Shown here piece by piece: positions 1,232-32,449 of a stretch of DNA of 64,000 nucleotides (position 1 is its first letter; every line of letters starts with the position of its first letter). The notes below the pieces were generated by a model that worked only from the letters and a program-made list of their open reading frames with translations, ran no database searches and was not told the origin of the DNA. The position numbers and the translations under genes were made by a program. Where the stretch lies: NCBI GenBank assembly GCA_030704615.1, contig CM060731.1:30690001-30754000 (forward strand), given 5' to 3'. The DNA is from Takakia lepidozioides (lineage: Eukaryota > Plantae > Bryophyta).

Positions 1232-1318
1232 TGTCGTGCGCATACATATCGCTACACAACTACATCGCTGTCCAAACCACACCACACATATATGCACAAT
1301 AAAGTAGTCTACCACAAT
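1232..1318 (-). repeat. Terminal repeat segment Y, terminal copy (87 bp)
   Basis: Identical by eye to 1679-1765. Confidence 0.95.
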
Positions 1319-1322
1319 AGTC

Positions 1323-1676
1323 TAACCAAACTAGATAAGGACACACACTCTCAACACAAGAAATATGCAATCCCTCAACATCACTCTTTAAGATAATAGT
1401 CGAGCCAGGGGCACCCCAAGCTATGGGGACTCCACCCCACAACAACCTACACTCCCATCATAAGCACACTCAGATCTGAAGAATGCAGGAGCTCGGTCGC
1501 GCAGGCTCAACTCGAGAGAGATGAGCTGCGCGACTGCCGCTCTCGTGAAGATAAGACGGACCAGGTGTCAAACTAAACTTGACACCTGATTTAACACTTG
1601 ACCTAAATCCAAGTGTTAAATACAAATAACTAGTTTTATGCTAGTTGTTTTCACACTGTGCTTATTTAACTTGACA
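1323..1676 (-). repeat. Terminal repeat segment X, 3' copy (354 bp)
   Basis: Matches 13376-13729 with one visible T/C mismatch. Confidence 0.95.
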
Positions 1677-1678
1677 GC

Positions 1679-1765
1679 TGTCGTGCGCATACATATCGCT
1701 ACACAACTACATCGCTGTCCAAACCACACCACACATATATGCACAATAAAGTAGTCTACCACAAT
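1679..1765 (-). repeat. Terminal repeat segment Y, internal copy
   Basis: Joined to X through the palindrome GACA-GC-TGTC (1673-1682). Confidence 0.95.
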
Positions 1766-1775
1766 CGCCCCCCTA
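1766..1775 (-). promoter_or_regulatory. Putative polypurine tract (AGGGGGGCG) just upstream of the internal Y copy
   Basis: Plus strand cgccccccta abuts the Y boundary at 1765. Confidence 0.55.
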
Positions 1776-2023
1776 GCTGGTGGATAGGTCCCTCTACCTC
1801 CAGATAGCTACAAGATGTAATAGCCACAGCTGTACTAAGTCCTCTATCACTGTCTTTATCGTGCTCAAACTCTATCAACCAAGAGGCCGGGTACAAGAGT
1901 AGCCCCATCGTTAGTCGCCGTCTTGCAATCTATGAACTTGAGCCAAGATCTCGTGTGTTCTAGGTCTCCTAGTAGCTGGGTCTTGCGTTTCTTGTTAACC
2001 TCCCATGGTTGTATCCACTCCCA

Positions 2024-3290
2024 CTATCCAATGCAATGTGGACATAACCAATCCCCATCCGGAACCATCTCAAGAGGTGGAGTCAAGCATCCCATATGCC
2101 AACCTCTAGAGCACCGATCACATACCAGCATGGTGGCTGCCCCTTTAGCAGACCCACACAACATGCACCTCAAACCTGCAGATACCACTGCCAGGTTTGG
2201 GTCAATCCTGCCATCGACATTCGGAAGGTGACATGGCGCACAATTACGCACATGGTCCTTCCAAGTGATGCCATCCCGACCCTCCAAGACCAAGACGCCT
2301 GAGGGCAAGACCTCTCGAACCCTCAAAATAACACGTCCTGCAGTCACATCCAGGGTCGTAGGAGCAGTCTGCTGCAGATAGACATAGTCACCAGGGTTGA
2401 ATCTCCGAACCCCAGGACGATAGCCCCCACCACGTATGGTAGCATACCTCAATGTATCACGGTGTTGTGCAATGGCAAGGTTCTCGAAAGCCATGGGCAT
2501 GACTCTCTTGAACAACTCTGCACGCTGCTCACATGCACGTGCCCACACGTCCGGATCGTCAAGGTTAAGAACTGTAGCAGCTTCTCTGCGAATGGATGTA
2601 GGCAAATCCGGCTCTCGGCCAAAGAGAAGAAAGTATGGTGAGAAAGAGGCAAGTGATGCTTGCTTGCTGAACCTGTAGCCCATGGCTAACCAGGGTAACT
2701 GAAGGTCCCAATCTCCTAGGTGTCCCTTCTGCAAGCCATACTTGCGCAAACCCCTCTTTACTGTCTGAACAACTCTCTCTGCCAAGCCATCGGCTTCAGG
2801 ATGATCCCGAGAAGTGGTGCGGTGGTCTATCAAGGCTTTGTCACACAAAGCCTGAAACTCCCCCAAGAACTCTCTCCCTTGGTCCGTGAGTACCTCAGCT
2901 GGAGCACCGAATCGGCTAAGCACACAATCCAGGAATGCATACGCAGCTCCCTCACTAGCCTTATCAGGCAATGGAACCAATTCAATCCACTTGGAGAAGT
3001 GCTCCACCATCACCAACACGTACTTGTTGTGGCGCATGGTCAGTGGCAACGGCCCTGCGAAGTCAAGACTCCACCTGTAGCCCAATCCCATGATCGGAAG
3101 AGGTTGCAATTGTGGAGTAGGGCGTTGAATGAAGCACGCACCCTGTCACATACCATGCACCTAGCCACAAAGTGTTGTACCTCTGTGTGCATACCACGCC
3201 ACCAATACTGCCCCTGCAGTAGACTATGAGTGCGTCGCACCCCAAAATGCCCCAACTCCTCATGGGCATGCCGCACTAACCGTGCCCGCT
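2024..3290 (-). CDS. Integrase (HHCC zinc finger + DDE core) with C-terminal PHD finger; 1-bp frameshift near 3120
   Basis: HAHEELGH...CMVC; WSLDFAGP, VLTDQGREF, GLAERVVQT; PHD CMLC...CDRCSRGWHMGCLTPPL...WLCPHC at ~2030-2170. Confidence 0.95.
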
Positions 3291-4245
3291 GTGTTGGGTG
3301 AGGCACAATCCTCACTCGACCATCCTCCCACACTCGGAGCAGGTGTGTCCCCTCCCACCTGAACCTCTTGGCTCGTTGTAGGATCCGATCCCTCTCCTTG
3401 GCAGTCATAGTGGCTGCCGTGTCTCCACTGCGGAGGTAGGAATCCTCATGTATCCAACACAACTGAATCCTCATGTATATCTTTGGCGCCACCCTGCTCT
3501 TGCTGGCCTCAGGGTCCTCAGACACTTGATCTACAGTCATCCCTGTTGTAGGTCCAACCTGGCCTTCCGCTGCCAAGATACACAGAAATGCAGATGCATG
3601 CCATCCGGGCACCATCTCCTCGTCCGTCTCACCATGCCACCGAGCTCCAGTGTCATCCTGCTGGCTCGTGCATGGATTGCGACTCAACCCATCTGCATTT
3701 CGATTGACCAAACCCGGTCGATGCACCACCTGAAAGTCATACTCTTGAAGGATGAGCGCCCACCGTGCAAGCTTCCCCGTAAGCTTGTCTGACTCCATCA
3801 ACCACTTGAGTGGTTGGTGATCCGTGACAAGGGTGAAGAGATTGCCGTATAGATAGCACCTGAAGTGTGCCACGGCCCACACTGCAGCTAAGCATTCTCC
3901 CTCATATGAGCTATACTTAGACTCTGCAGCATTGTTCGAGCGGCTAGCATAAGCCACTACGAACTCTCTTCCCTCATCATCCACCTGTGTGAGCACCGCT
4001 CCAAGCCCCAGCATGCTCCAATCTGTATGCAGCTGAAAAGGACGCCCCCTGATAGGTCGTCTCAAGATGGGCGCCGAGGTCAACCTCGCCTTGAGCTCTT
4101 GAAAAGCTTGTTCTTGCTCATCTTCCCACTGCCACTCCTGGTCCACCTTGGTCAGCTTGGTTAGAGCCTTTGCAATGGCACTAAATCCCTTAACAAACCG
4201 TCTGTAATAGTTTGCTAACCCCATGAAAGCTCGAACTCGGCTCAC
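3291..4245 (-). CDS. RT thumb/connection and RNase H of the polyprotein
   Basis: RAFMGLANYYRRFV; FQLHTDWS; YSSYEGECLAAVWAV; LVTDHQPL. Confidence 0.95.
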
Positions 4246-5009
4246 ATCCGTGGGGCGTGGACCTGTGCAATGGACTCTACCTTAGTCTGCTGTACCCCCA
4301 ATCCTCCAGGATATATCATGTGACCCAGATACTCAATCTGGTTGTGGAAAAACTTGCACTTGCCCGGATGTAACTTCAATCCGTGCGTCCTCAAGCGCTC
4401 AAATACCCCCTGAAGGTGTCTCTCATGCTCCTCCACCGTAGCACTAAAGATGATGATGTCATCTATGTAGCACCGAGCAAACTCCACCCCTGCTAGAATC
4501 CTGTCCATGACTCTTTGAAACTCAGCGGGAGCGTTTTTAAGCCCAAATGGTAAGAACCGCCACTGGTATAGGCAATCCTTCCCGTGCTCATTGATCCCCC
4601 AGAATGCCGTCTTTTGCTTATCCGCCTCCTTGATCGGCAACTGGTGATATCCGGATCGTAAATCCAACGTGCTAAAGACCTTGGAATGCCCAATGGCATC
4701 AAAGATCTCCTCTGGTGTTGGCATGGCATACCTATCGGACTTGGTCTGACGATTTACAGGCCGGTAATCACCGCACATACGTCTCTCCGTCCAATTGCCA
4801 TAGACATCCTTCTTAGCTGGCATCACTGTGGCTGAAGCATACTCTCCACCAGAGAGCTCCACCAAACCTGCCTCCCAGAGATCTTGAGTCCTCATCTGAA
4901 TCAAAGACCTCTCCATGTCACTGTATCTATAGGGTCTCCGAAAGATTGGCGTGTCAGTGGCCAACTCAATACGGATCTCTTGACCCTTCAGTGCTCCCAA
5001 GTCCTTCAA
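4242..5009 (-). CDS. Reverse transcriptase, Ty3/Gypsy type
   Basis: RMCGDYRPVN; LDLRSGYHQL; LPFGLKNAP; YIDD; KCKF. Confidence 0.97.
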   Translation of the reverse strand: MKDLGALKGQEIRIELATDTPIFRRPYRYSDMERSLIQMRTQDLWEAGLVELSGGEYASATVMPAKKDVYGNWTERRMCGDYRPVNRQTKSDRYAMPTPEEIFDAIGHSKVFSTLDLRSGYHQLPIKEADKQKTAFWGINEHGKDCLYQWRFLPFGLKNAPAEFQRVMDRILAGVEFARCYIDDIIIFSATVEEHERHLQGVFERLRTHGLKLHPGKCKFFHNQIEYLGHMIYPGGLGVQQTKVESIAQVHAPRM

Positions 5010-5439
5010 ACTGAAGGCAAAGCAATTCCTGTAAGCCCTTAGGAACCGCCGTATACGTCGTCTCTCTCCTCCGGTGACAATGGGTCCAATATCAGGCTCC
5101 CAATTGTCCTCCGTAACTGTAACCTTAAGTCCAGTGGGCTTAGAGGTAGAGGACGCGTCCCGTGGTTGCTATGCTGCAACCTCTTGAGCAGTACCCCCTT
5201 CCTGCTCAGTCAATGACAAGGCCTCATCCTGCCCCATCATCTCATCATTGAGAACCTCCTCATCCACACAGCTGCCTTCGCTGCCAACTCCCTCTGAAAC
5301 CTCGAGCACCTCCCACATGTGCCATGGATGTCTACACCTCGTGGTCCTCACCGGCTCGCCCCCACTCGCTGCCTGTACCGTCTCGGTAGGCAGAGAGACC
5401 ATCAAGGGAAGTGCACTCCGCACTCTACGTTGCTCAGCC

Positions 5440-6390
5440 ATAGCCAAGCGGACAATCCAGGTCAAGCAATTGAGATCCATTGCTTGCCCCAACACCTGAC
5501 GACGTGATGCCTCAGAAAGGGAAGGCACCGCCGTGTGTCCCAGTGGAAAACCCCATAGCCCGCTCTCGCTCGTCGGCATTAGGCTCCACTAACTGCTGCA
5601 ACTGAGCATCCCACAGGAGGCCAGGTCCACCATCCCGAAAAGCATGGGATCCTGGGAAGCTGAGCAGTGTAGGTAATGCTGCTCGTGGTTGACCCACCCT
5701 GTTGACCACTGCCAAAGGCGAACGGTCATCGTGTCTCACACGTTGAGACTGCCTTCCTGTGTCCAAAATGCCATCCACGGTGAGGTGTGCTGGCCGCTGC
5801 ACCCATCAAATGCACGCTTGAGCAGTGCGGGTGGATCAAAGTTAGTCCACCATAGTCGGACGATGAGCCCGTGACCCCACTGCAGCTGCTCCAGCAATAC
5901 TGCGACCCAAGCCACGACCGGACTTGATGCACACTGGCCATCACCCTGGCCCGAGAATCACCCATCAGTGGCACATTCTCCAAGATGTATGCCGGAGATA
6001 CAGCCTGATGAGCTGCAAGTGGAGCAAAATCCGCACCATCTCCCAAAACAGACCCGTCTTCGAGTCTCGCAATCCATTGCCATGCCCGGCTGATGAATGC
6101 CCTTGGCAGGCCAACCTGCCACTACCAGATCAATGGAGCCAACCGCTCCAAATCCTGCGCCCCCAGCAACGCATGTCTGCTGGCAAGGCTTTGCTGAGTA
6201 TCCACGAACTGCAGGACACGGCAACAACTCAGGGTGACTGCTGCACCATCTGAGCAACATGGCGCAGTGAGACGCGTCGTGCAGTCTCACCCTCTCCAAT
6301 TACAGGTAACGTCGAACTCGTACACCTGCCTGCGCACTGCAGCCAATCCAGTGCTGATCCCGCCAAATAAGTCCAGAAGGCATATGCCTT
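5440..6390 (-). CDS. DNMT3-like C5 cytosine DNA methyltransferase domain inside the polyprotein (several 1-bp frameshifts)
   Basis: Motif I ICLLDLFGGISTGL; motif IV IDLVVAGW-PCQGHSSAG (1-bp deletion in the Pro codon); motif VI YILENV; motif VIII LLDAAAVGSRAHRPRLWWTN (reconstructed across frameshifts); motifs IX/X ERERAMGF..GHTAVPSLSEASRRQVLGQAMDL. Confidence 0.9.
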
Positions 6391-6799
6391 CATCCGGTCG
6401 CTGCCACACCAGGTGTGGTGTCCAATGGCGACAACTGAAGGTGGCCCGGGTACAATCCACCGCACTCTCCTCCTCTCCTGACGGTACAAAAAAGCTTCTA
6501 CCCAAGCTTGTTGCACCGTCCATCAGCAGCGTGCTTGCAAATCCTTGCTCGTACCCACAACGGAGTGTGAGCAAACCATGGTAGGCAACTCCGCCGTACC
6601 ATGCATGTCATCCTGCTCTGCTGGAGGTGCACATCCTCTGCATGGGCATTGCCTTCCAGCAACTCTCCAGGCCAGCTGAATGCAGCTGTGAAGGCGGCTA
6701 GTGTTGGCATCTTGGCCCCGCTGAGCAACTGCAATACCCCAAATGAATGTCACAGGGAGCTGTGCACGGCGACCATCCCCTGACTGCCATCCAGGCCTG

Positions 6800-7200
6800 T
6801 AGGATGCTGACTCCTCCAAAGAATCCAGGTGTGAAGCCCATGGGGTATAACCACTGCCCCACCAACGAGGACATCGTAAAGACCGCGTCTGTCATAATGG
6901 CCTTGGCTCGCATCACTGAGCCATCTAACAGGAGATGATCGGCTGCAGTCTAATAGCCAACTGATGCCGTGTCATGCCGCGAGCCTGCTCTGATCCTCCC
7001 AGAGATGTCTGTATCTGGAAAGGACAAGGCACCATATCCGCCTCCATGAGGCCCAAACCTGCAATAGCAGCTCTGCCCAACATCAGTGGCTGAGCTCCTG
7101 AGTCCAACAAGACCCGCAGTGGCCGGTACTTCTTGCCTGCCGGGCCACTCAAAGTGAAAAATGCCTCCTTGGTTGTCTAACAAGACAACTCCAGGTGTCA
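6800..7200 (-). CDS. Retropepsin-type aspartic protease (frameshifted)
   Basis: YRPLRVLLDSGAQPLMLG; downstream YDVLVG-like segment near 6870. Confidence 0.85.
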
Positions 7201-7869
7201 CCATGGCGCGCTCAAAGGCTGGCCTAGCTGGCAGCTCCGTCATCCTGGCAGCTGCAGCTTGCCAGGGCGCTGCCGTGGCAGTCTTGACCCTCAAATCCGA
7301 GGATCCCTCTGCCACTACACCTTCCACTAACTCCGCAGAAGATGAAGTGACCTCTCCACTCTCAGCAGAGTGTTGCTGCTAGTCTGAACACTGCAGCTGG
7401 TCTCAATCCCGGCGTCGCAATCATGGTCGCCGAGAACAGTGGGGCTTGACACACAGAGGTGGCTGCTCCCAATAACACACCGGCTGCACTAGCCTTGGTA
7501 GTAGGTGTCAGTGCTGCACGGGTAGCTCTCCCCAATGGTAGTAACCTCCGCCTCGGTAACAGTCGGCGAGAACTAGTGCCATGGATGGCGTTGACACTGT
7601 CGCCGCCAAGGTGAATGACTGAGGCAGCCTTGCCTGACGGCTTGCCTCCCCACGTTGTGGATCCAACTCCACCTCTGCACCTCGTGGCTCAGGAATCGTG
7701 TTGCTCCTCGAGTCACGGCTGCAGCAGACTCCACCTGCTCTAGTGGTAGTGTTGCTCCGCACATGAATCCCATTCCTCCCATATCTCCTCCCTCAGGAGC
7801 AGGAGGTGGGCCATCCCGCCTGGGAGCCGGTACGCCTGTGAGCGCGTGCCCATGGTAGCGATCCTTGCT

Positions 7870-9341
7870 CTAGATGCTGTGAAAGCGAGTTGCCATGCCT
7901 TGGTCCACACCTGACCTCCGCGTCCTTGGCCATGTGGAGGTTGCCCTTGGCCTGCACCTCGTGCCCGACCACCTCGTCCTCTTTGGGCTGGTCCACCTCG
8001 CCCCCGGCCACCATTGTTCCTTGGAATTGGCCTGGGCGCAACTCAGGATGCAAGTCATAACACTGGGCATCTCCATGCCCATACTTGCCACAATGCCCAC
8101 ACTGCAACTGTGCAGGCTGTGCTTGTGCCGGCCTCTGCCACTCTCTGGGCAATCTCTCTTGACATGGGGTCCTCCACATGTCCAACATATACACCCTGGT
8201 TGCTGTTGGCCTGCAAAAGATGCCACGGGCTCTGCACCTGAGGGTCCCCTGTAAGCTCCATGGAACTTGGCTGGGCAACCTTGCCCCCCTGAACACGCTG
8301 TTGGGCAGTCCCTTGTGCTTGTGGGCTGACAGCTGTGCCCCGTACAGGCATGTCCTTACCAAATCCAATTGTAACAACTCGCTCCTCCACCATGTTGAGC
8401 TCAATCCGCTCAGCCAGCAGAAACACATCTGCTAATGTGGGTTGGGCTGCTTGTAACAGGGTTGCATCTCGCACCCTTCTCTTGAGCTCCTTGTCCAGAA
8501 TTCCATACCAAAACTGGATTGCCTGAGCTTCAGTAACCCCTTGGGTCACACTTATCAAGCGCCTCATACGAGTGTACGCCTCTCGCAGGCTCTCACTGGT
8601 TTGCGCTGGAAGTCTTGCAAACTTCGCAGCTTCTCTGTCCGTACACCTTGGTAGTTCCTCCGCAACTCCTGGAAGAACTCCACCACCGGGTTGAATCTTG
8701 GCAAATGTGTTGTAGTCGTGGCAGGAGAGTAGTAGTAGCACCTTTTGAACTGGTACCCTTCAGAATAGTACCAGCGCTACTTGCTCCACTACTAGTGCTG
8801 GCAGTGGTGGAGCTATTGGTACTATGCAGCTACTGGTCGCGTCGTGCCTCGAGTAATGGAGACGTAGTAGGTGACCAATACATCCTCCACTCCTCAATCT
8901 CTGCTTCATGTCCTCGCCTGAACTCGTGGTAATCGTCCATAGGCGGGCCTTCCAAATGCTGGAACAGTCCTTCCACGCCATGAATGGGGTGAATAGCTGT
9001 GGATTGCGCATCTGCTGCAAATCACACCAGCTGTCGAACTCCTGGATAAAGTCATCCAACTCGATTGTGCCCACAGCTCCAGAGTACCTACGAGGCCCCT
9101 TGGTAGCTCCATACATCACCTCCATGTCGTCCCACAACAATGGCGAATGAAAGTGCACACCTGTTGATGAAGCCTCCGAGTCTGTGTCTGACGCTACAGT
9201 AGTTGAGGGTGGCGGTGAAGGTGGTCTGAACCGAATACCTCGTCTTGTGACCCCACTCTCACTGTCACTGCTTGTAGCCGTACTCCCCTCAAAACCCTTG
9301 GGTAACTCCGTAATGACACTCACAATGTGCACCTCCTCCAC
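7870..9341 (-). CDS. Gag with two CCHC zinc knuckles (frameshifted)
   Basis: LDDFIQEFDSWC; QTSESLREAYTRMRRL (MHR-like); CWTCGGPHVKRDC and CGHCGKYGHGDAQC. Confidence 0.85.
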
Positions 9342-11329
9342 GTGACACTATAAGGCTCTAGTACTAATCTAATAGTGACACGGGTGGGCACCTGTTGCAG
9401 TCTAAGGGTCATATCCCAATGGCTCAGGGCACCTGCACCTGCATTCCACCGCAAGAACTCCTATGGTTGGCTGGTCATCAACCCAGCCTCACCGTAGAAG
9501 AAACACTGGTGGTCTTGCTGGTCATCACTCCAGCCTCACCACCGACAGCATACTCTAGGATTGACCGGTGATCAAATCCGGCCTAATCCCTATGAAAGCA
9601 AGCGCCCACACAAAACCAACATGGCGCACAGTCAAGCATGCAGGTGTTTGGGGGGATCCAAACACAAGAAATCAAAACATCAACACCCCACACCAAAATC
9701 CAGCAGCAACGCTGATCCTGCAGAATATCCCAGCCCAAAACCCCGGACTGACTGGCCTCCACCAAGAGAGGCTTTGGCAACTACAAGTACAAGGTAATGA
9801 AAATAGTACAGAGATGGAGGGGAAGAATAGAAGCCCGCCCAAGCAAGATCTAATCCTGATCTATGCTATCAACTTCCAGACTTCTCTCAAAGTGCCTCGC
9901 TCTGCTTGATGGTAAGGTGTAGGAGGTATATCTATGTCCAGAAACCTGCCACTAACCTTGTCCCAAGCTACAGTAGCTCGCTCTAAACCAACCTCCTCCT
10001 CTTTCTGCCAGGTAGAGACAAAGCAACACTCTGCTATCTCCCGCTCACTGAACACTAAAGAAAACAAAGGTAGGGTCTGATAGTCTCTCAACTCGAAAGC
10101 TTTGAGACGTTGCGGGTGTCTTCATTGCGAATGACTGCATCGCCTTCAAACAGAACAAACTTGTCCTCGCTAATGAACCCCCGCTCGTGGTTGCCTTGTG
10201 CAGAGCGTGTCCGACTGCAACACTGTCTAATTGCACAAACTTGTGCAGCTCCTGCTCCTCTGCTCCAGTACACCACGGCCTTGTGGCTGAACACCTTGGT
10301 CCCGGGGCTGTCTTTGGCTGTGTTCCAAGCCTAGCTTTCACCCACTTTGGTATTTCACCTACAGCTGCAGAACTGCTGGCTCCAACAGAGTTCTGACTGT
10401 CAAGGCGATATTGAGGCCCTCAATGCCAACTACAGCAGTCTGTTGTCTACTGCTAATGCCTGACTCCCAGTATGCAATCAACTCGTCCAACTGTTCTCCA
10501 CTCAAATCAGTCTGAGTTCCTTGGGAAATATAATCGTGTCCCCTTGTGTGCACAGACTAAGAGAAGAGACCTGCCCTTCAATTACGTCCTCATTTCCCCC
10601 AGCCATGCATGGAGTACATCCACCAATTTGTCTCTCATATAGACCAGCACAGGTTCTAGAGACAGTATTGTGGATCTTTCATGGCACACTCACACTCTAA
10701 AAATTCCATAGATTTTTAGCAGAGTCCCCAAAACAGAAACCAGGTTTAGATAGGTAGATTTCCCCTTTCTGCAGCTATCCCCCCAAAAACTGGGTCAAAC
10801 AGAGTCCATTTGACAAAGATATGATGAATTTGGCTCCCAACTCATTCAAATTAGATTAAAAAGGGGGTTTTTTTTTAAAAGGTTTTCAAGTTTTAAAAAT
10901 TCAAAGTTAACACCCAAAATATCTGGTAACTGGTTCCCGGTTCCCTAAGTTCTATATGGCATCCTAGGTTCCCTGGCCACGTGCCTGCTGTTCCCCTCCA
11001 TTTCATTTGAGTTCAACAGCTCACCATGCTTTGGAATCCCAACCGTCTTCTACCACAAACCGTGGTGACGATGGAGTTCGTGAAGCGATCCTTCCCAGTG
11101 AACCTCGAGAGACGAGTCCCCTGTGCACTTGATATACACTCTCAATAGAGAAAGAATCAAAATCAGCAAGGAGACACCATTGACACACCCAGAGATCAGA
11201 GACAAGTACTTGCGCAGTTCGGAGGCCACAGCATCCCCTCTGGACACTGAGCGGGGAATAGCTGCTACACAGCAGCTCAGTCTATCGTCAGCTCCTATAC
11301 CTACTAGCTTCCTGCCCCTGCCATAATCA

Positions 11330-11670
11330 AAGAGGACAAGTGACACAACACCAGCTGGAAACACCTTTCCTGAATTTTTGTATCGAGAGCCCATCACAAA
11401 CAAGAGAAGCCCTGAAACAGCAACACCGATAGAGGACGCAAGGACAGGGTTCGAGGGCAGGTTCAGATAGACATAATAGAGGATCAGAGCTGACCCTCCC
11501 CCTGACAGCAATGACTTGCTGCTCCCAGATTTTGCAAATCCGATCACTCCTCCCAGACCAACAAGGACTGCATACGCCAAGGTCAGCTTCTGCGACATAG
11601 ACAGCTTCATCTTTCCGTCACCACTTCCCTCTTCCTGTCCTCCCTCACCACCGTTCCTGTTGCCTCCATT
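11330..11670 (-). pseudogene. FAX: Captured fragment of plastid fatty-acid export protein (FAX, Tmemb_14 family) in the retroelement leader
   Basis: Gly-rich linker followed by MSQKLTLAYAVLVGLGGVIGFAKSGSSKSLLSGG...VMGSRYKNSGKVFPAGVVSLV. Confidence 0.85.
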
Positions 11671-12561
11671 GCCCGACACTTGGGTTACATGCTCAGCCAG
11701 ACCTTCAAAAAACCTGGCCCAAAATTCACTGGCTGCTCGGACACTGACATGACCAAACCTCTTTAACTCCAATCAGCCTGCTGCTGAGTTACGATCTCAT
11801 CACCAAGCAAAATCTATCCCAATGCCCAGTTGAGCTGCCAGTCTCGCATTCACTTTCCCCACCAAGGCAGCTGCAATACACTGACTGTCTTAGCTCCCTC
11901 CATGACAACCTCCCGCATTTGGGCAAGTTCAGCTTCACGGACCTCCCAGCGACTTAGCAGCTGCTTCAGGTCATGGTCCTAGCTAGCGCATGCTGGGCTG
12001 CAACCAGTTGCAGATCCTTATCGTGTAGAAACCCTTCACTGCTCTCTTTCCATCTCCTGATGCCATGCTCCATCCTCCAGCCACTTCACTTGTTTCAGGC
12101 ACCCAGGTCCCTATGGGCAGGTCACATGCTCATGTGCCAGCCAGAACAGTGACATTCGACCCCTTCGTCTTCAGGAACAAGCTGGTAGCTTCCTTGATGT
12201 CATCAGTTTCCTGGACACTTAAACGGCAGTATGGTCGCCACCTCTGATTGAGGCAGTAGTGGTGACGAAAGGAGAAGAGAACACAGGGAAAGAGCGAGGA
12301 AAAATAAGGGCGGAGAACTGCTCATGTCAAAAGGTCAAAGCCAGAGAGGTCGAAACATTGTGCGAAGGGGGACCGTGTTTCTGCTGCCCTCTCCCACTTC
12401 AGCGCAACATTCAGCGTCCAGAGAGTGAAGTCCCTCAAAATTTAGAGAGTGAACCCACCGGCAACAGGAGTGCTCTCAAGCGGACATTGAGCGCCCTCCA
12501 CTGACTCAGTTGAGTGTGCAAACCTTTCTGCTCATGCAGTTCCAGCAGTCAATACTCACTC

Positions 12562-12870
12562 CTAGTGATGATGATGCTCATGCCCTAGAAGACCACCCTC
12601 TCCTATCACCTTCAACTGAAAAGACTTGGCTGCAGACTGAGCATTCATACTATTTGTCCTTCTCCAGCTTGAACCATGTCACATCATGCTCATCCTCACC
12701 AACACCTCCTGAGCACCCAACTATCCGCTCATCATAGTGTGACTCCACAATTGCAGGGGCATCCTTGGTTCCAAAGGGACCACGAGGCGGATCCAGATCA
12801 AAGCGCTTCCCACCCGAGCGCTCCGCTTCCAACTCCTCCAGCTCAACTCCTGTTGCAATTCCAAAATCGC
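12562..12870 (-). pseudogene. COX5B: Captured intronless cytochrome c oxidase subunit 5b fragment in the retroelement leader
   Basis: IATGVELEELEAE...GPFGTKDAPAIVESHYDERIVGCSGGVGEDEHDVTWFKLEKDK*YECSVCSQVF...GHEHHHH*; one internal stop. Confidence 0.9.
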
Positions 12871-13356
12871 CCGAGCTGCCTCCTGCACTTGCCAAATCAC
12901 GACTACGATGCAACCACCGCGCATATGAGAGACCCCGATGTTCTGATTACTCCGCTTGCAGTTGCGGGTTACACAGCAATGTCGGTGGAGGCACACATGG
13001 TACACGCCTGGATGCAACCAACCGTGAGAGCCTGCATCCAGCCGTCCTCAAACATAGCGCCCCACTCCCTCTGGGCCTTGCCATCACACCACCAGCTGCC
13101 ATCGACATATCCTCCGCAGCCGGCGACGCCCTTACAGTGGAAGCACACCTCGCCAATGCCAACAGAAATATGGGCAGACCACCATTACTCTCTCTTCTAC
13201 CACACCATTGCGACTGGAGATGTGAGGTGAACTCAAGCTAGAGCCGTTCTATGCTCCTTGCTTGAGCTGCGTACAAGACCATGACCATCTATATTATAAT
13301 AGTGCTTAAAAAAACAAAAACATCATATCTAGCTTAGCACTGGAAAACTAGATAGT

Positions 13357-13373
13357 GCTCATCTCTCTCGAGT
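13357..13373 (-). promoter_or_regulatory. Putative self-priming primer-binding site
   Basis: gctcatctctctcgagt is the exact reverse complement of 13563-13579. It lies 2 nt from the 5' repeat boundary, and there is no TGG tRNA-type PBS. Confidence 0.7.
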
Positions 13374-13375
13374 GA

Positions 13376-13729
13376 TAACCAAACTAGATAAGGACACACA
13401 CTCTCAACACAAGAAATATGCAATCCCTCAACATCACTCTTTAAGATAATAGTCGAGCCAGGGGCACCCCAAGCTATGGGGACTCCACCCCACAACAACC
13501 TACACTCCCATCATAAGCACACTCAGATCTGAAGAATGCAGGAGCTCGGTCGCGCAGGCTCAACTCGAGAGAGATGAGCTGCGCGACTGCCGCTCTCGTG
13601 AAGATAAGACGGACCAGGTGTCAAACTAAACTTGACACCTGATTTAACACTTGACCTAAATCCAAGTGTTAAATACAAATAACTAGTTTTATGCTAGCTG
13701 TTTTCACACTGTGCTTATTTAACTTGACA
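13376..13729 (-). repeat. Terminal repeat segment X, 5' copy (354 bp)
   Basis: Matches 1323-1676. Confidence 0.95.
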
Positions 13730-13733
13730 ACCC

Positions 13734-15550
13734 TAAAGGACCTTGTGTGTGTGCAGCTTGTGCCTGAAGCCTTCAGAATGACATCTGATAATCTGCAAGC
13801 ATTCACCTTTTTGCCTTGTTTGTCCCACCATTGGCTGGGGTCAGAAAAGTATTCATCCCACAGCTTCTCCCTCTGTTTACCTGTTTTTTGATACTTTCAT
13901 GTGTCACATTGGCAGTATCATGTCAAAGTCACTCCAAACTACCAAAGGTTCACTCAATCAGCTAACTTGCAGAATTCAACATGGAAATGTAGGGCAGATC
14001 CTGATAAGAGGGGAAAACAGGGTGAAATGTGTTGAAGGTGCCTTCTCCTCATCCATGTTATCTGTTTTTGGATACTTTCCTGCTGCCACATCAGCAGTAA
14101 CTTGTCAAAGTCACTCCTAACCACCACAGATCCACCCAACGAGCTAACTTACAAAGTTCAATATGCATCTTAGGGCCGAGTCTGATGAGAGGGTAAAACA
14201 GACAAAAATAGATTGAATAAGAAGGTGCCCTCACCACATTGTTCTTGACCTTGTGTCATGACCCATGGAAGATTTGACCGAATATCAACCCTAAAGGACC
14301 TCTTGTGTGTGCAGCTTGTGTCTGCAGCCTTCAGAATGACATTTGGTAATCTGCAAGCATTCACCTTTTTGCCTCGTTTGTCCCACCATTGGTTGGGGTC
14401 AGAAAAGTACTCATCCCACAACTTCTCCTCATCTATGTTTATCTGTTTTTGGATACTTTCTTGTGTCACATTGGCAGTATCATGTCAAAGTCACTCCAAA
14501 CTACCAAATGTTCACTCAATCAGCTAACTTGCAGAATTCAACATGGAAATGTAGGGCAGATTCTGATAAGAGGGGAAAACAGGGTGAAATGTGTTGAAGA
14601 AGGTGCCTTCTCCTCATCCATGTTATCTGTTTTTGGATACTTTTATGCTGCCACATTAGCAGTAACTTGTCAAAGTCACTCCTAACCACCACAGATCCAC
14701 CCAACAAGCTAACTTACAGAGTTCAATATGCATCTCAGGGCCGAGTCTGATGAGAGGGTAAAACAAACAAAAATAGATTGAATAAGAAGGTGCCCTCACC
14801 ACATTGTCCTTGTCATTGTGTCATGACCCATGGAGGATTTGACCGAACATCAACCCTAAATGACCTCTTGTGTGTGCAGCTTGTGTCTGCAGCCTTCAGA
14901 ATGACATTTGGTAATCTGCAGGCATTCACCTTTTTGCCTCGTTTGTCCCACCATTGGTTGGGGTCAGAAAAATATTCATCCCACAGCTTCTCCTCATCTC
15001 TGTTTACCTGTTTTTGGATACTTTCATGTGTCACATTGGCAGTATCATGTCAAAGTCACTTCAAACTACCAAAGGTTCACTCAATTAGCTAACTTGCAGA
15101 ATTCAACATGGAAATGTAGGGCAGATTCTGATAAGAGGGGAAAATAGGGTGAAATGTGTTGAAGAAGGTGCTTCTTTTACCCTATGTTATCTGTTTTTGG
15201 ATACTTCCTACTACTATATCGGCAGTAGCTTGTCAAAGTCACTCCTAACCACCACCGATCCACCCAACGAGCTAAAGTACAAAATTCAATATGCATCTCA
15301 GGGCCGAGTCTGATGAGAGGGCAAAACAAGCTGAAATAGGTGAAAGAAGAAGCTGCCCTCACCACATTGTCCTTGACCTTGTGTCATGACCCATGGAGGA
15401 TTTGATCGACCATCAATCCAAAAGGACCTCTTGTGTGTGCTGCTTGTGTCCGTAGTCAAGTACTGTCGGATCGCTCTGTGAGAACCACCATGCCTCCACC
15501 ACGGTGCAGCTGAGCAGACGCCGATTGACACATGGCTTGCTAAGACCAAC
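13734..15550 (-). repeat. Tandem array of ~563-bp units carrying OSB-type PDF motif exon fragments (first unit starts at ~1035 and is split by the retroelement)
   Basis: cttgtcaaagtcactcctaaccacca recurs at ~1041, 14101, 14666 and 15229; units encode EEKLWDEYFSDPNQWWDKRGKK and HKRSFWIDGRSNPPWV. Confidence 0.85.
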
Positions 15551-16487: not shown

Positions 16488-18389
16488 TCACCAATAATCA
16501 CCACAAGAACAAATCCCGTCTTCAAAGTGGTGGAAAACCAATGGCCAGCTTCTTTCCTCCACATCATGCAATAAAAAGTGTGTGTCAGGCACATACCCCA
16601 CCTCCTTCATCTGTCCAGACAATCTTCTCAGCTCAGCATGGATTTCCTTAATTCTGGGATACAACTTGTCATCTGGTCTAACCCCTGTGACCTTCATCAT
16701 TCTTCTCAGCTTTGCAGTATCATCCCACCTGCCAGCTGCATCATAGATGTTTGATATAACAACACCATGATCTTGACTCAGGGAATCGAAGTAGCGTCTT
16801 CATTCATTCAGTAGGCCAGTGTGGTTGCATGCAGAGAGAACACATATAAAGGTGATATTGTCCAGCTTCAAGCCATTCTTTTGCATTCCTTCAAACAGTT
16901 ATAGAACCTCCCTATGACAACCATGCTGGGCATATCCTGCGATCATTGGATTCCACGACACCACATTTCATTCAGCCACATTGTCAAATACTCCCTTTGC
17001 ATCCTTAATGCACCCAGATTTCGCATACTTGTCCACCAGGGCGGTGTCCAGAATGACATTTGGTACAATTCCAGCTTTGATGATGTCACCATGCACCCTT
17101 TGACCTTTTCCAGGGCTGCCCGGCTTGCACAAGCATTGCAAACGCACACAAACGTGATGTGGTCGGACTTCACCACTTCCCCATCATTTGCTCATAGGTC
17201 TCCAAGGCCTCCATCCCGCGCCCCTGCTGTGCATATCCTGCAAGCATGGCATTCCATGACACCAAATCTCGTTCAGCCATACACTTCCTCCGTATCCTTG
17301 ATGCACCCACATTTGGCATAGATGTCCACGAGGGTATTGTTCAGAATCACATCTGGTACAATTCCAGCTTTGGCGATGCAACCATGCACCTCTTTGCCCT
17401 TTCCAGGGCTGCCAAGCTTGCACATGAACTGCAAACGCACACAAACGTGATGTGGCTTCACCCCTTCCCCCAACATTTGCTCATAGGTCTCCAAAGCCTC
17501 CATCCCACGCCCCTGCTGTGCATACCCCTGCAAGCATCGCGTTCCACGACACCACATCTCGTTCAGCCACAATGTTGAAATTAACTCCCTTCGCATCCTT
17601 AAAAGCACCCTCGGCATACATGTCCACCAGGGCAGTGTTTAGGATGACATCTGGTACAATTCCAGCTTTGACGATGTCACCATGGACCTCTTTCCCCTTT
17701 TCCAGAGCTCTCAGGCTTACACACACATTGCAAACACAAACAAATGTGATGTGGTTGGTTCTCACCCCTTCGCACATCATTTGCTTATAGGTCTCCAAAG
17801 CCTCCATCCCACACCCTTGCTGTGCATATCTTGCAATCATCACATTCCACGACACCACATCACGTTCAGCAATACTGTCAAACACTCCATTTGCATCCTC
17901 GATGCACCCACATTTGACATACATGTCCACCAGGGCAGTGTTCAAAATGACATCGGGTACAATTCCAGATTTGATAATGTCAGCATGGACCTCTTTGCAC
18001 TTTTCCAGGGTTGCCAGGCTTGCACACGCATTGCAAATGCAAACAAACGTCATGTAGTTGGGCTTCACCCCCTTCGCACATCATTTGCTCATAGGTCTCC
18101 AAAGCCTCCATCCCGCACCCTTGCTATGCATATCCTACAATCATCGCACTCCACGACACCACATCTCGTTCAGCCATACTGTCGAACATTCCCTTCATAC
18201 ATGTCCACGAGGGTATTGTTCAAAATGACATTTGGTACAACTGCAACTCTGACCATGTCGCCATGGACCTCTTTGCCCTTTTCCAGAGTTGCCAGGCTTG
18301 CACATGCATTGCTAATGCATAGAAACGTGATGTGGTCAGGCTTCACCCCTTCCCCCATCATCTGATCATAGGTCTCCAAAGCCCCCATA
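16488..18389 (-). pseudogene. 3' half of a PLS-class PPR-E-DYW RNA editing factor pseudogene
   Basis: Repeated HITFVCVCNACASL/ILNTALVDMYAKCG/DVVSWNAMLAGYAQQG triplets; IHAELRRLSGQMKEVGYVPDT...FHHFEDGICSCGDYW*; frameshifts. Confidence 0.9.
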
Positions 18390-18569
18390 CACTACAATAC
18401 AAGCTAGGCTTTTCGACTTTGTATTTGACTCATTTTTGAGTCGTTTGCGACATTCTTACTCCCAGCCTCCATACTCGAACATGCGTGACAAAGGTCAAGT
18501 CGTTTCAGTCAAGCAGTCGAATCCAGATGCCAGGTTCTGACAGTGAAATGTGACAGTAAAACCTAGGGG

Positions 18570-19376: not shown

Positions 19377-22091
19377 TTGATTAGTGCAATGGCTCCTGGG
19401 AACAACCAGTTTCGCAGCAGACAATCAATGGAGGCTCGTCGGGGTTTCCAGAATGGACAGAGAAGACCCAACATCTCATCTGGGACAGGCTTCTACCTCG
19501 CACATCAAGAGCGTTCCAGGACTGCTACGACCAACGGGTCTGTAAGGAACAACCCCCCCCCCCCCCTCCTTTCCACTTCAGTCCTCTCTCTCCCCCCAAC
19601 CCTGCCTTAAATTTCCCAGGCTGGATTCACCTCCAACAGTTCCAAACTGCTCAAACCCACCCATTTTGGAAACTCCACCTACACAATGGGTGGAAGAAAA
19701 CATTCTCAATCAAGCCGACTTGGACAGGGACTATCCAATGATCAATATGAACATCCCAGATTTACAAAAAAAGGTTACAACCATGGAGGAGTCTGGTATC
19801 CTCATTCACTTTCAGGGGACAAAAGTGGATAGAGCTACTATTAGAGACTGGGCCATCAAACATCTTGGCGGCCCTGGAGAACTGCGTCAACAGTTTTGCC
19901 ATGAGAAGGGTCGAGGTTTCTTTTCAATCATGTTTGAAACCAAGAAGCAGCAAACCAGGCCTTGCTTTTCAACCCCCACACAAAGGGATACAATGTCAAC
20001 ATATTCCCTTGGTCATCCAAGATGGGAAACATGAATGGTAAACTTTGGGGCCCACGCATTGTCTCTGTTCCTTACATCCCAAATCAATATCTGGTTAACT
20101 TGGCGGACATTGCGAATCATTTTGGATCATACCTTGGATGTTTGGCGGTATTTGATCCCCAAATGTGTACACAGAACTTAAGGCATGACCCAGCTTGGAG
20201 ATCAGTGACTATTGCATCACGCCTTCATGAGACTGGATGTGCCAAATTCGTGTTGATGATGCTAGATGAGGATGTTCTGCCGCAATTCGTGAAACTGCCA
20301 ATAGATGAAGAAGACAAGTATTTCACGATTCAGCTCATAGAAGACACTACCTATGCAGCTTGCTCAACTGTGGTCAAATTGGTCAATTTAAAATCGACTG
20401 CCCCACAGCCGAACGCAAGCGACATCAGCCCGTTGTCCCCTTCAACCTTCAGCATCAGCAACAAGGGGTACCCTCAACAGCGGAGGCGAATCAAAGGCAA
20501 AAAATGAACAACCCCACTGTGGGCTCCATGCTTCCACCAAACGCTCATGCTGCCCAGGCCCTTCAAAGGGTTCCCAACGATCCTCTGCAACTCAGATCTT
20601 GTCCACAACATAATACTGCCAAAGGAGATAGCAGCAAGGATCCAATGCAGGCAGAATTACTAGCTCATCATCATACGGGGGGTTCTATTTCCAAAGGGAA
20701 GGCAAAGCAGATTGAACATCAACAACTGGTGGCTACCGAAAAAGGGAAGACAAAAGTATAGGATGGACAACAGCTGAGATCAGTCAGACTGACACTTCCA
20801 ACCAGCAACTCTTTTCCTAAAATTACCACCGACATCGCATGCAACTCCACCTTTGCCAATGCTAGCCTCCAAACCTGCCCATTCCCTCACCTGGATCTAA
20901 AGGGTTGCTCATCATTGGAGATGGTTGAAACACCAAAGGCTTCCTGTGTCACTCCTCTCATATTCCGCAAAAGTATTCCCCCAGTTATTCTAATCACATC
21001 AGATGATTTCGAATGTGTGGAATCACTTTGGATTACTACTGCAGACATCAAACACTTCCTGCAATTAAACCCTCCCAACAGCAACCCTGAGATTTTGTTC
21101 AAATACAAAATTCAGGAGTTCTTCCACAAGTCGCAGCCCCACTATTCGCTTTCACCATTTACAAAAATCTCGTGGGGAGCATATCTGGAGGAACACCCAG
21201 GGCTAAGTAACTTACCAGGAATGGCTATCTACTCCGGGAGGAAGCCACAGATTGCAAATCCGTAATCAGGACACATTAGTCAGTGGGTTCCAGCTGCTTC
21301 AAGCTCACTTGGATTCCGAGGTTGACCATGACAATTACAGAATGGAAATTCAAAGAACCAGGGAGCACATCAACAAGAACAAGCTATTCGGATCCCCAAA
21401 CGTATCCTCGGACTCTCAGGAATCAACAAACACCTCAACTCAGGAGGAAAGCAGCAACTTCAACCCTGCAGTTGAAAGTCTGCAAATATCGCCTCCAACA
21501 ATACCGATCTCCACTCAACTCATCGCCCAGGCCAGCTCGCAAGTCACCTCTCCACCTAGGGTTTTGATACCTACCCCTCTACCCTCCCCTATTCAGGTGC
21601 CCATCTCACCCTCACCCTGTTTCATTTACCAGCTTCAATCAGGAAATACTAACAGATGCTGGATGTTATGTAGTAAAAGTAAACATCTCAGCCAGAATAA
21701 AGATAGGAGACACATCCTACCAGCATGCAATTTGCCTGACAACATTCCCTCTGGAAATCTGCCTTCGGATGGTTCCCTTCTCCAAAGATATCCAGAGCTC
21801 CAGCACCTGTTTTCAGCTATTTCTTTCCCGGATGGGGTATCTATCCAGGCTGTTACTATATCCACTGTTTCAAAAGAGCAGTTTCAACCAATACCAGATT
21901 ACCAATATCCATACAGAGCTAGGGGTGTATTCATAACCATCCTCAACAAAACCCGAAAACCCCCGAACAACTTCATCTGGGTCAACTCAGTGCGACCAAA
22001 AGATCGTAGGGTAAAATTCGTTTATCATACCAAAGGGCTATCAAACCTGGTTTCCAGTCCAGGCCCTCCATTCCCTCCCAATGACCTTTAA
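19377..22091 (+). pseudogene. LINE ORF1 region (frameshifted)
   Basis: KGRGFFSIMFE RRM-like segment; CLNCGQIGQFKIDCP knuckle near 20360. Confidence 0.65.
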
Positions 22092-25000
22092 CCTTCAATC
22101 CTGGAACATTAGGGGCCTTGGATCAGATCCTTCCTCTCTCAAAAGGCTGAGAATCAAAACTTGGATGGCTCCTTTCCTCTCTGGTGACTCTATAATATTT
22201 CTACAGAAACACAAACTAGACTAGACCAAAATCGACAACCTTTCAGACTATCTATGGCCTATAACAAACTCTCTTTAGAAACCAACCTCTTCAGGCACCA
22301 AAGGAGCGACGGCGATATTATTATCTCCTTCTTTACAACCCTTTCTCGCAGCAGAAGATATATGGATACCTGGCAGACTGCAGTTCTGCGCAATAACCCT
22401 ACCCAACGCAGTTGGCTCGATTGGGTTAGTGAACATTTACGCTCCAAACTCATCTGCAGAAAGGTCAGAATTTTGGAGACTTCTCAATGCAAGAATAAAA
22501 GATCAACTAAACATAGACAACTGGACTGTAGCAGGTGATCTTAATATGGTTGAGGTCCAGGAGGATAGGCGAGGGGCTGGAACCTTCACCCCAAATTCAG
22601 AAGAGATGGACCAATGGTTCAACTGTGCTCAAACACATAGTCTCAAGGAGGCAACACCTATTTTTGGTCAAGCTTCCAATATCACCTTTACATGGTCCAA
22701 CAATAGAACCCTCACCGACCTTAGCATGGCTCGTCTTGACAGAGCTTACCTTTCCCTCAATTTTGTTCAATTCTCTAAAAGAGCCCCGCAGGAACCCATT
22801 CCCTTGGGATTTGACCACGCACCAATCACCCTTTCTATCTCAATCCCTCATTCATGCCAACGAGGTAGAGGCCTCTACAAGCTAAACAATCTCCTCCTCA
22901 AATTACCCTCCTTCAAACAGGGTCTTTTGCAGGCTTGGTCTCAGGCTGGCAACCCTGACCTAAATCCAGCTTAGTCCTATAACCCTTCTGAATGTCGCCT
23001 ACAAAATCATTGCCAAGGCTCTTGCCCTTAGACTGCAACCTTTTCTTCCATTCATTATTCGGCCCAACCAGACAGGATTTATTAAAGGCCGGTATATTCT
23101 GGACAACCTCCTCTTTGCACAGGAAATTCCAGACTATGCCCTAAGGACCAATCAAGCCATTGCCCTTCTTCTCTTGGATTTTGAAAAGGCTTTCGACCGG
23201 GTGGAATGGTCCTACTTGCTTGCAGCCTTGCTAAAATTTGGGTTCCCTCATTCTTTTTGTAAATGGGTCAAGATTCTCCTTACTTCTTCATCCAGTAGGG
23301 TTACTGTAAATGGCCACTTGTCTTCTTCCTTCCCTCTTCGGCGATCAGTTAGACAGGGATGTCCCTTCTCACCCTTTCTGTTTCTGGTAGTGGCAGATAC
23401 CCTTGGGTATATGTTGCAGCAAAACCATTTAATGACAGGCCTTAGGGTCTCAAACTATATAACGGGCCAATACACCTACCTGACTGACTCTATGTTCGTG
23501 GATGACACGTTTTTAATGCTGCAAGCAAAGTCAGAAAACTTGGACCAAGCAGGACAAACTCTGCATACCTTTTGCAAAGCCTCGGGATTCAAAATTAATT
23601 GGAACAAAACTTCGGGCTTGCTCGTTGGTGACCTAACGGCTTCCACTATGGGCTCACCACCCTCTTGGGGGGTGGATCAGGGTCTCTGTTGGCTCCAGCC
23701 TGGCGAAACAACCACCTTGTTAGGATATACCTTTGGTATTAACCTCACAGACCAGCAAATCTTTGCCTCTACATTATCCAAACTAAAGAAAAAATTGACC
23801 TACTGGGGGTCAAAGCATCTCTCTCTCGTTGGTAGAGCCTTAGTGGTGAATCAGATTCATTCAGCTGGTTTATGGTACTATGCCTCCTCATGGCGCCCTA
23901 ACTCTAAACAAATGCAAGTAATCAGACGCCTCCTCCGGAACTTCATTTGGGGAGCAGAAAACTCCATTCACAACAAGAGACCACAGGTAGCTTGGTTACA
24001 GATCTGTTTACCAAAATAAAAAGGAGGGCTAGGGGTGTTGGACCCTGAACTACAGATAGTGGCCCTCCTTGGAAAATGGATTCCGCGCTTTCTTGGAGCA
24101 GAAGGAGGTTGCTGGAAATTTTTGGTCTATGACCACATTGCCAATTCCTCGCCACTCAAAAACACCCCTTGGACCCCATCATTGCGCTGGATCACTCAAG
24201 GCTTCAACCTTAAATCAGTCAGTTCCACTCTATGGTCCAACATGTGGTCGGCCTGGGGAAGGCTCAGAAAACTACTTACAAAAGCCCAGCCAAACTTCTA
24301 TGAAATCAAAAGACAACATCTGTTTCTCAATGACATACCTCTAATTGCTCCTCAGAAAAACCAAGCTATGAGATGGTCCAAATGGGACTGCCTCGGGGTC
24401 AGACAGGTTCATAACATATGGTCGGGAGATAGTCTCATCTCTCAAGATGCGCTGGCCCTTTTTGTGGGGAGGTCCCAGGCATCAAAAGGTTACCATGATA
24501 TCATTCAAACTATCCCACCACAGTGGCTGGCCACTCTGGCACTTGGCCCTCCGCAGCCAGCTCCCAACTCATGGACTTTAATCATTATGCAAAACAAGCT
24601 TACCATTTTGTTTCTAGATGAACTCAGTCACAATGATATGTTAGTATACACCTTCTCTATTGACACCTTCACTCTTAGGCTTACACTTACAAACCCAAAC
24701 CCAGTTCACTTCAATCTCATGACTCTAATGCCGGTGAGGATATGCTGCTGGACAGCCCCAGATAAAGCCATGGATCCTATACCACCCCTTACAACCACAA
24801 CCAGATCCTGGCTTCTTTCTAACACCTTTGTCTGGATTCTAGGGAGACCTCTCGCAGAAATGGACATTGACCCCCAAGAATGGTCCTGGAAATTCAACAA
24901 TGCTCCAGAGCCATTCTTTGCATACACAACTAAGAAGGGATACAAAGCATTATCTGTCTCTCAACCTATGAACAAGAAATGGGAAGCTAGATGGGGATTG

Positions 25001-25718
25001 TACAATTTCTGTGATGAAAACTGGAAGACTATTTGGGGTTCAGTTTGGATTAAATCCCGCCCTTCAAAGATTGCATCCTTTCTATGGCAATTAGTAAATA
25101 AGGTTCTCAAAGTTGGGGAATGGCTACAGTTTCAGGGTTCGATTTTATGTGCTTGCTGTTCTACTGCTGTGACAGAATCTCTTTCAGACACAATCATTCA
25201 CCTAAACTATGATCCAACCACAAAAAACAGAGCCATTAACTGCCCTGTTTTTGAAACCTTAAGAGCATCAGTTTTGTGGCATCTATGGAAACTAAGATGC
25301 AAAAATACCTTTCTAGGAGAGACCACTTCCATATCTGCCCTCCTGGCTACTGTATTTCTTGACTTACAAACTGAAGCTAGGAAGGCATGGGCCAAAATAT
25401 GTGCAGTCATACAGCGGGATGCCAGGAACTCGGAGGCCATCCACAGGAACTTTCAGCACACTTGGGGTAGACAAGGGATCATATGCAGCAGCCCTGTGCA
25501 GGACCAATGCTACTGGAACGCTCTCCCCCCAGCAGCCTGGCGAGATCTCCGTGCGCCGCTACACTCTTTCCCCCGAATTTGAAAGGGACATCAACTGGAA
25601 GCATCTGAAACCCTCCTTGACGGCTTCCAAGTTGCACTACAGACAGATCGCAATCTCCATCGTGGAGAAAATCAATGAACTATCTACTCTCATTGCCACT
25701 CCTCCCCTGCCATTCTAG
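22081..25718 (+). pseudogene. LINE ORF2 (AP endonuclease, reverse transcriptase, zf-RVT) with an internal deletion near 22975
   Basis: MTFNLQSWNIRGLG; NIYAPN, GDLN, RLDR, FDH; PITLLNVAYKII, LDFEKAFD, RQGCPFSP, FVDD; FLWQLVNKVL. Confidence 0.92.
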
Positions 25719-32400: not shown

Positions 32401-32449
32401 GCACTTAAGCAAGAGATAGACAACCGTAGTGAAGGCCTTCATCCACTAG

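Follow-up and report, generated by a model that had tools for sequence, protein, structure and literature searches.

The closest described system is KnitGypsy-Dnmt3, a retrotransposon published from Klebsormidium nitens only, with its Dnmt3-type domain given as part of the Pol ORF (PMC5890265). In yeast its enzyme produced no methylation, a result that the authors judged inconclusive; SymbioDIRS-Dnmt3, the DNMT3 of a Symbiodinium retrotransposon, methylates CG in yeast (PMC5890265). Why a transposon should carry a host silencing enzyme has been a question since 2018, in part because the organisms known to carry such elements are difficult experimental subjects. The available parts of two later papers citing PMC5890265 speak of 'streptophytes' and name no land plants, and the excerpts of PMC5784723 count five Marchantia methyltransferases, naming none of the retrotransposon enzymes described below. 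No land-plant or readthrough description of such elements was found in the searched literature (subscription journals and Repbase lie outside this scope). The name 'KnitGypsy' was absent from its other papers, and the text of the REXdb paper contains neither 'methyltransferase' nor 'PHD'.

A 64,000-nucleotide stretch of Takakia lepidozioides DNA (the window) was analysed. An original prediction had recognized a methyltransferase (MTase) borne by a retrotransposon and had cited DNMT-bearing retrotransposons of Symbiodinium and Klebsormidium. Kinship with the Klebsormidium elements was borne out. The K. nitens protein GAQ93235.1 (P0196) is co-linear with window-type elements through zinc knuckle, protease and PF00145 domain, and 569 of its residues align with the Marchantia protein P0009 (29% identity, E 1e-54).

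Structure of the element

The coding order is Gag, protease, MTase, reverse transcriptase (RT), RNase H, integrase and PHD finger. The following parts were located in the window.

1232..13729, minus strand: whole Ty3/Gypsy-type element, TG...CA ends, 4-bp target-site duplication, 12.5 kb
13376..13729, minus strand: 5' terminal repeat B, 354 nt, 99.7% identical to 1323-1676
1323..1676, minus strand: repeat B, 3' copy
1679..1765, minus strand: internal repeat A, 87 nt, identical to 1232-1318
1232..1318, minus strand: repeat A, terminal copy
13358..13373, minus strand: primer-binding position, 16 nt complementary to a stretch within repeat B (13564-13579)
1766..1775, minus strand: purine-rich, polypurine-tract-like stretch adjoining internal repeat A
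1673..1682, no strand: junction of A-end CA, GC and B-start TG, 10-bp palindrome, putative integrase attachment site
12653..12946, minus strand: COX5B host-like coding fragment in the 5' leader (PF01215, E 6.9e-14)
11053..11772, minus strand: TMEM14/FATTY ACID EXPORT (FAX) host-like coding fragment in the 5' leader (PF03647, E 2.9e-16)
5172..9125, minus strand: ORF1 remnant with Gag, protease, MTase and linker, about 31 frameshifts and 1 stop as assembled
8187-8164 and 8101-8075, minus strand: two zinc-knuckle-like motifs of Gag
7110-7093, minus strand: protease (retropepsin) motif LLDSGA
2024..5168, minus strand: ORF2 remnant with RT, RNase H, DDE integrase and C-terminal PHD finger, 2 frameshifts
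2167-2033, minus strand: PHD finger, C-terminal in ORF2

The direct repeats are split in the order B-coding-A-B-A, and there is no pair of full identical terminal LTRs; standard programs that search for paired LTRs would presumably overlook such elements or place their borders wrongly. TG...CA ends with a target duplication of 4-6 bp, by which Ty3/Gypsy elements are recognized, were found in the window element and in the related loci L042, L044 and L028. The repeat layout is the same in L042 and L044, each with its own 4-bp duplication. RT (RVT_1, E 3.6e-33) and DDE integrase (rve, E 2.6e-14) were identified, and no tyrosine recombinase family, the mark of DIRS and Ngaro elements, was present among the scanned ORFs. 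The purine tract recurs in L005, L013, L027, L042, L044 and others. The CA/GC/TG junction is likewise seen in L005 and L042 and is decayed in L029, L044 and L046. Since the copies of B are 99.7% and those of A 100% identical, the insertion is young.

The 16-nt complement just after the 5' B suggests self-priming, and L042 has such a complement of 17 nt. Tf1 is the precedent for priming of this type. Tf1-type priming is also mentioned for Tcn1 in the available part of PMC6317226. An ARAGORN scan of the 64-kb window found no tRNA genes. Two peculiarities of the repeats were discarded as evidence. The short form B-coding-A (L013, L014, L028) might have indicated one-LTR circles; it is explained by recombination or assembly collapse, since L014 and L046 are of different form although they have a common 3' flank. 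The variable B/A joint is weak evidence of end joining, being precise in the main family and having four extra bases in the window.

The insertion site is a tandem repeat unit of ~565 nt, arrayed at 974-1231 and 13730-15460; such units are also dispersed near 26700-29600. The element's family is represented once more at 53307-53950, by a diverged terminus of the order A-B-junction-A that retains the attachment junction; no MTase or Gag accompanying it was detected elsewhere in the window. LINE-like non-LTR remnants with RVT_1 and zf-RVT occur at 19500-25600 (plus strand) and 37400-38430 (minus strand). Many fragmented PPR coding stretches with ~300-nt periodicity (16800-18450, 27500-33900, 53900-54700) would fit PLS-type RNA-editing PPR arrays, which are abundant in some non-seed land plants.

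The leader (9400-13375) measures ~4 kb, versus ~1.2 kb in L042 and L044. Its COX5B and TMEM14/FAX pieces are uninterrupted and have the same orientation as the element, as they would if host mRNAs had been captured. The best named match of the TMEM14/FAX fragment is from Sphagnum compactum (77%, versus 63-72% for seed plants). Taken with the PPR fragments and the nearest named relatives, this suggests a non-seed land plant as host. A Pfam search of twenty further leader frames gave no match.

The methyltransferase domain and its relatives

All C5-MTase motifs named in the original prediction were found on the minus strand, from 6376 to 5472, in canonical, non-permuted order.

5424..6390, minus strand: DNMT3-like C5-cytosine methyltransferase domain with unpermuted motifs I-X; codon of the catalytic Cys at 6108-6106
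6376-6359, minus strand: motif I, LDLFGG
6125-6111 and 6108-6097, minus strand: motif IV in two pieces, VVAGW and CQGH
5986-5972, minus strand: motif VI region, ILENV
5871-5857 and 5858-5841, minus strand: motif VIII in two pieces, RAHRP and RLWWTN
5565-5548, minus strand: motif IX, ERAMGF; and 5504-5472, RRQVLGQAMDL

The strings GWPCQ and RAHRPRLWWTN are present, catalytic Cys codon included, but each is split by a frameshift. The domain is not spread over about five short frames, as had been thought; it is broken by 12 frameshifts and one stop, two of the frameshifts falling within motifs IV and VIII. A frameshift-aware alignment to the intact relative P0004, with X placed at each break, had 227 of 325 columns identical and a score of 1049; eight shuffles scored 29-47. 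The PF00145 search that had been advised succeeded with intact relatives (P0004, E 6e-11) but not with the six stop-free MTase pieces of the window singly.

The best PDB sequence match of P0004 was DNMT3A (E 6e-12), followed by DNMT3B (1e-9), DRM (1e-8 to 2e-4) and bacterial enzymes. An AlphaFold model of P0004 with moderate pLDDT (66.6) gave only DNMT3A, B or C among the listed fold matches (top E 5e-14, TM 0.56). Motif I stands ahead of motifs IV-X, i.e. the domain is unpermuted and does not show the circular permutation of plant DRM. Judged by its sequence, the window domain is a DNMT3-like C5-methyltransferase and no captured DRM, in agreement with the prediction. The catalytic residues are kept over 162 full-length domains: Cys in 160, the Glu of ENV in all 162 and the motif VIII Arg residues in 159 and 161. 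The Pro before the catalytic Cys is replaced by Glu in 68 of the 162 MTase domains, an unusual variant of motif IV.

Between families the dN/dS of the MTase (Nei-Gojobori) was 0.16-0.24 where dS was finite, dS being saturated in five of ten pairs; these sequence comparisons indicate purifying selection, in line with the check proposed beforehand. Close copies gave 0.35-0.85 for the MTase and 0.28-0.69 for RT. Such RT-like values are expected for decaying copies but lend no support. Observed/expected CpG was 0.51-0.53 in the element and 0.54 in the rest of the window, so that CpG depletion offers no trace of self-methylation.

About 32 breaks, mostly one-base losses, fall in 3.7 kb of ORF1, versus 2 in 3.1 kb of ORF2; some of those in poorly conserved ORF1 spacers may be alignment artefacts. 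For comparison, the MTase was examined in 49 related loci, chosen by intact motifs and excluding L041 and those whose MTase span was short or long. It has 27 frameshifts and 139 stops among them and is unbroken in seven. The window copy is reversed (12 versus 1) and, as assembled, is dead. Because of this opposite ratio and the near-identical repeats, the ORF1 breaks are somewhat more easily read as long-read assembly error than as decay; the alternative is a decayed, non-autonomous copy. The family is very abundant in its host: in two runs of one sample, 17,704 and 20,251 contig records match 4900-7300, and at the places where the window is broken many of them differ from it by single-base indels. 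The breaks leave the family-level conclusions unaffected.

The domain is not peculiar to this copy. At least 45 related loci keep it at the same place. A 97-residue natural piece used as query retrieved 81 proteins among 237 candidates; names among them are Marchantia polymorpha, Calypogeia fissa, Riccia sorocarpa and three Sphagnum species. Elements of this kind are thus present in land plants, from which the prediction had been aware of no characterised example. A profile search gave 48 long proteins, among which Haematococcus and a gene model labelled Mesostigma were new, and 361 clusters (50% identity) with E 1e-30 or better. Names among the 20 clusters looked up were K. nitens GAQ93235.1, six Closterium and two Hariotina. 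Viral contigs yielded 78 pattern matches and no relatives.

Two architectures were distinguished. The named streptophytes have protease-MTase ahead of RT, and the named chlorophytes have the MTase between RNase H and integrase. The latter order is complete in 36 proteins, including Haematococcus, and fits the Hariotina proteins in part; L056:4935-9278 and L058:389-4492 encode RT-RNase H-MTase-integrase-PHD in one frame. In an RT tree (60 rows) the first architecture forms a clade with the window, Marchantia and Closterium (SH-aLRT 99). An MTase tree (162 rows, domains under 290 residues left out) sets the second architecture apart with weaker support (85). Both are quick searches, unrooted, with no outgroup and with SH-aLRT values only. 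The lineage is an old one of green plants and no fresh land-plant capture. The 'hypothetical' PF00145 genes annotated in liverworts and mosses belong to transposons, and this bears on how many DNA methyltransferases are counted in those genomes.

The stop codon between methyltransferase and reverse transcriptase

The MTase had been placed between protease and RT. Its position is right (LLDSGA at 7110-7093, YIDD at 4469-4458), but it does not belong to Pol proper, as an in-frame stop precedes RT.

5163..5171, minus strand: in-frame stop TAG (5171-5169) followed by CAA CCA, a UAG-CAR-YYA readthrough-type context, between ORF1 and RT

The MTase frame continues for ~85 codons beyond the domain and ends at this TAG, and the RT frame resumes in frame. 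The MTase closes a Gag-protease-MTase ORF and is therefore no simple Pol domain. UAG-CAR-YYA is the tobamovirus readthrough consensus, which also works with UAA (PMC3542737, excerpts). By its sequence the window stop conforms to the strict Type I readthrough consensus, in frame with the downstream ORF.

Junctions were sampled from 66 loci (L051 left out); 45 of these and the window span both sides and represent 43 distinct junctions. TAG or TAA stands at the homologous place in all 34 that are in frame. CAR-YY follows the stop in 39 of the 43, strict CARYYA in five. In the second codon past the stop the amino acid varies (Pro, Leu, Ser) and YYN is kept. The base at +6 is A in five of about six families. 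A single family, whose context CAA-CCC is not strict CARYYA, accounts for about 36 of the 43 junctions; the contexts of the other families are CAA-CCA, CAA-CTA, CAG-TTA, CAA-TCA and one decayed form. No variant at or above 1% was seen at 5163-5173 in 993 contig records of X2, nor in the records of X7, X9 and X11, which represent two further organisms; the neighbouring bases 5151, 5161, 5174 and 5175 vary by 8-19% in the same contig records. The stop context is thus documented by the window, contig records matching it and metagenome loci. RNA structure 3' of the stop was inconsistent across families (z -0.16 to -2.16, six sequences).

Many unbroken Gag-protease-MTase proteins end 56-180 residues past the domain, including several from Marchantia; those of about 1280 aa, known from protein sequences alone, end 76 residues after the MTase. 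Klebsormidium-like proteins end directly after the MTase, as does GAQ93235.1, which is annotated as partial; the wording 'Pol ORF' in PMC5890265 may be loose. In Closterium and a few further relatives the MTase is fused to RT without a stop.

Proposed mechanism and comparison with known systems

On balance we lean towards a lineage with a Gag-protease-MTase protein whose enzyme is likely packaged at Gag level and methylates new, probably circular cDNA before integration. Very probably, most ribosomes terminate at the end of the MTase frame and a minority continue past UAG-CAR-YYN, and MTase would then outnumber RT. Termination would yield Gag-protease-MTase, and readthrough would supply RT-RNase H-integrase-PHD; each particle would hold MTase in Gag amounts. 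It is quite likely that, after self-primed reverse transcription, the ends join into a circle and the DDE integrase cuts the internal CA-GC-TG palindrome. Priming at two sites would give DNA with A-junction-B at either end; end joining and a cut at one internal palindrome would then produce B-coding-A-B-A with TG/CA ends and a duplication from the staggered cut. A circle is proposed because such geometry yields the repeat layout seen. With about the confidence given to the scheme as a whole, we suggest that the protease frees the MTase, which methylates element DNA, most likely at CG, that the new copy arrives host-like or pre-silenced, and that the PHD finger steers integration via histone H3 tails. 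Methylation before integration is proposed because the analogous SymbioDIRS-Dnmt3 methylates CG in yeast.

Against this mechanism stand the inactivity of KnitGypsy-Dnmt3 in yeast, the lack of CpG depletion, the stop-free branches, and the non-strict context and nearby ATG of the largest junction family. Indeed, the Closterium fusion and the chlorophyte MTase within Pol indicate that Gag-level dosage is not required for keeping the domain.

The MTase could instead act on the host side, abundant Gag-protease-MTase entering the nucleus and methylating integrated copies or target chromatin, for self-restraint or to shape insertion sites, and not particle cDNA. The integrase PHD finger, which resembles the chromatin readers CHD4, PHF12, KDM5 and ATXR5, would suit such a role. 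Self-restraint is among the options listed by de Mendoza et al. (PMC5890265), and in moss the host's own DNMT3 acts de novo on heterochromatin (PMC6453930, excerpts). We regard this as unlikely: ORF1 is devoid of a chromatin-targeting domain, and every architecture seen has the enzyme fused to Gag and protease or within Pol, which ties it to the particle. A role in binding DNA or RNA, in structure or in RNA methylation, DNA methylation being incidental, would agree with the inactive Klebsormidium enzyme (PMC5890265) and the undepleted CpG. It is improbable given the near invariance of the catalytic Cys, Glu and both Arg in 162 domains and nearest solved structures that are DNA methyltransferases. 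That this one copy captured a host DNMT3 fragment, now decaying like its COX5B and FAX pieces, is hardly credible, even though its MTase is broken and host fragments are indeed carried: it is already refuted by purifying selection and by a placement that the related loci share with proteins of Klebsormidium, Closterium and Marchantia, and the 361 clusters argue the same way.

The stop might also be bypassed by splicing or re-initiation, RT-integrase being made separately and the readthrough reading being wrong. Ogre elements provide a precedent for splicing past a stop. Two-ORF layouts of Gag-protease and RT-integrase are common in plant LTR elements (PMC6317226), and the largest family has an ATG 6 nt past the stop. 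In the window re-initiation is unlikely because the first Met of ORF2 comes only at codon 85, after 84 codons devoid of Met, though the main family has its nearby ATG; that ATG is missing also in L018/L053, L028, L048 and L059. The linkers between MTase and RT are open and in frame across families (273-396 nt), and what is conserved is CAR-YY. A single contig guessed to be RNA crosses the site and skips nothing, though it may be DNA; among the sequencing runs listed as containing the sequence none was of RNA. Such a bypass therefore seems rather improbable, and we retain occasional readthrough.

A wider scenario is put forward only tentatively. One Gypsy lineage may have kept a working DNMT3 since early green-plant evolution and moved it between two polyprotein positions; in land plants the leaky stop would load Gag amounts of it, and a pre-methylated circle would integrate by the DDE integrase. 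The elements would write their own methylation and might add de novo methylation to bryophyte genomes, including that of Marchantia. How much enzyme is made, and where, is predicted by the conserved stop. The repeat geometry predicts a circular substrate, a link between these Gypsy elements and the DIRS elements that bear methyltransferases. The question becomes testable in Marchantia polymorpha, which has Gag-protease-MTase ORFs free of interruptions and for which methylation mutants and methylomes exist.

Among green-lineage Gypsy elements with a PHD finger, Gypsy-7a_cRei and REM1 of Chlamydomonas, compared by description, have no methyltransferase in their listed domains; the legend to Gypsy-7a_cRei mentions LTR subparts (PMC9940879, PMC2774666, both in excerpts). 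Troyka, a metazoan element with CG...CG ends and a 3-bp duplication (PMC12440569, in part), is unrelated to the window element with TG...CA and 4 bp. SymbioDIRS-Dnmt3 and the DAM-carrying DIRS/LTR elements share a retrotransposon-borne DNA methyltransferase and split repeats (PMC5890265; bioRxiv 10.64898/2026.05.21.726589, excerpts), but they have a tyrosine recombinase or an adenine methyltransferase, and the window element a DDE integrase, a 4-bp duplication and a PHD finger. Host DNMT3 of non-seed plants, such as PpDNMT3b (PMC6453930), likewise has an unpermuted DNMT3-type catalytic domain; unlike it, the window-type enzyme is intronless and fused to Gag and protease. Plant DRM is permuted and the window enzyme is not.

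In SIRE1, env is reportedly expressed by stop-codon readthrough. The signal described here resembles Type I tobamovirus readthrough in having UAG or UAA followed by CAR-YY, with the strict consensus in the window (PMC3542737). It differs in lying between Gag-protease-MTase and RT-RNase H-integrase, and in that the hexamer of the largest family ends in C. Neither the conserved readthrough-type stop nor the circle-integration model was found in print. KnitGypsy-Dnmt3 is nearest, with its Gypsy domains, unpermuted Dnmt3-type domain, DIRS-like split repeats and purifying selection (PMC5890265). In contrast to it, the window lineage spans liverworts, mosses, Closterium, Mesostigma and chlorophytes, land-plant-type copies have a conserved readthrough-context stop parting MTase from RT, and chlorophyte copies place the MTase between RNase H and integrase. 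The element is of a described kind, here extended to land plants and chlorophytes.
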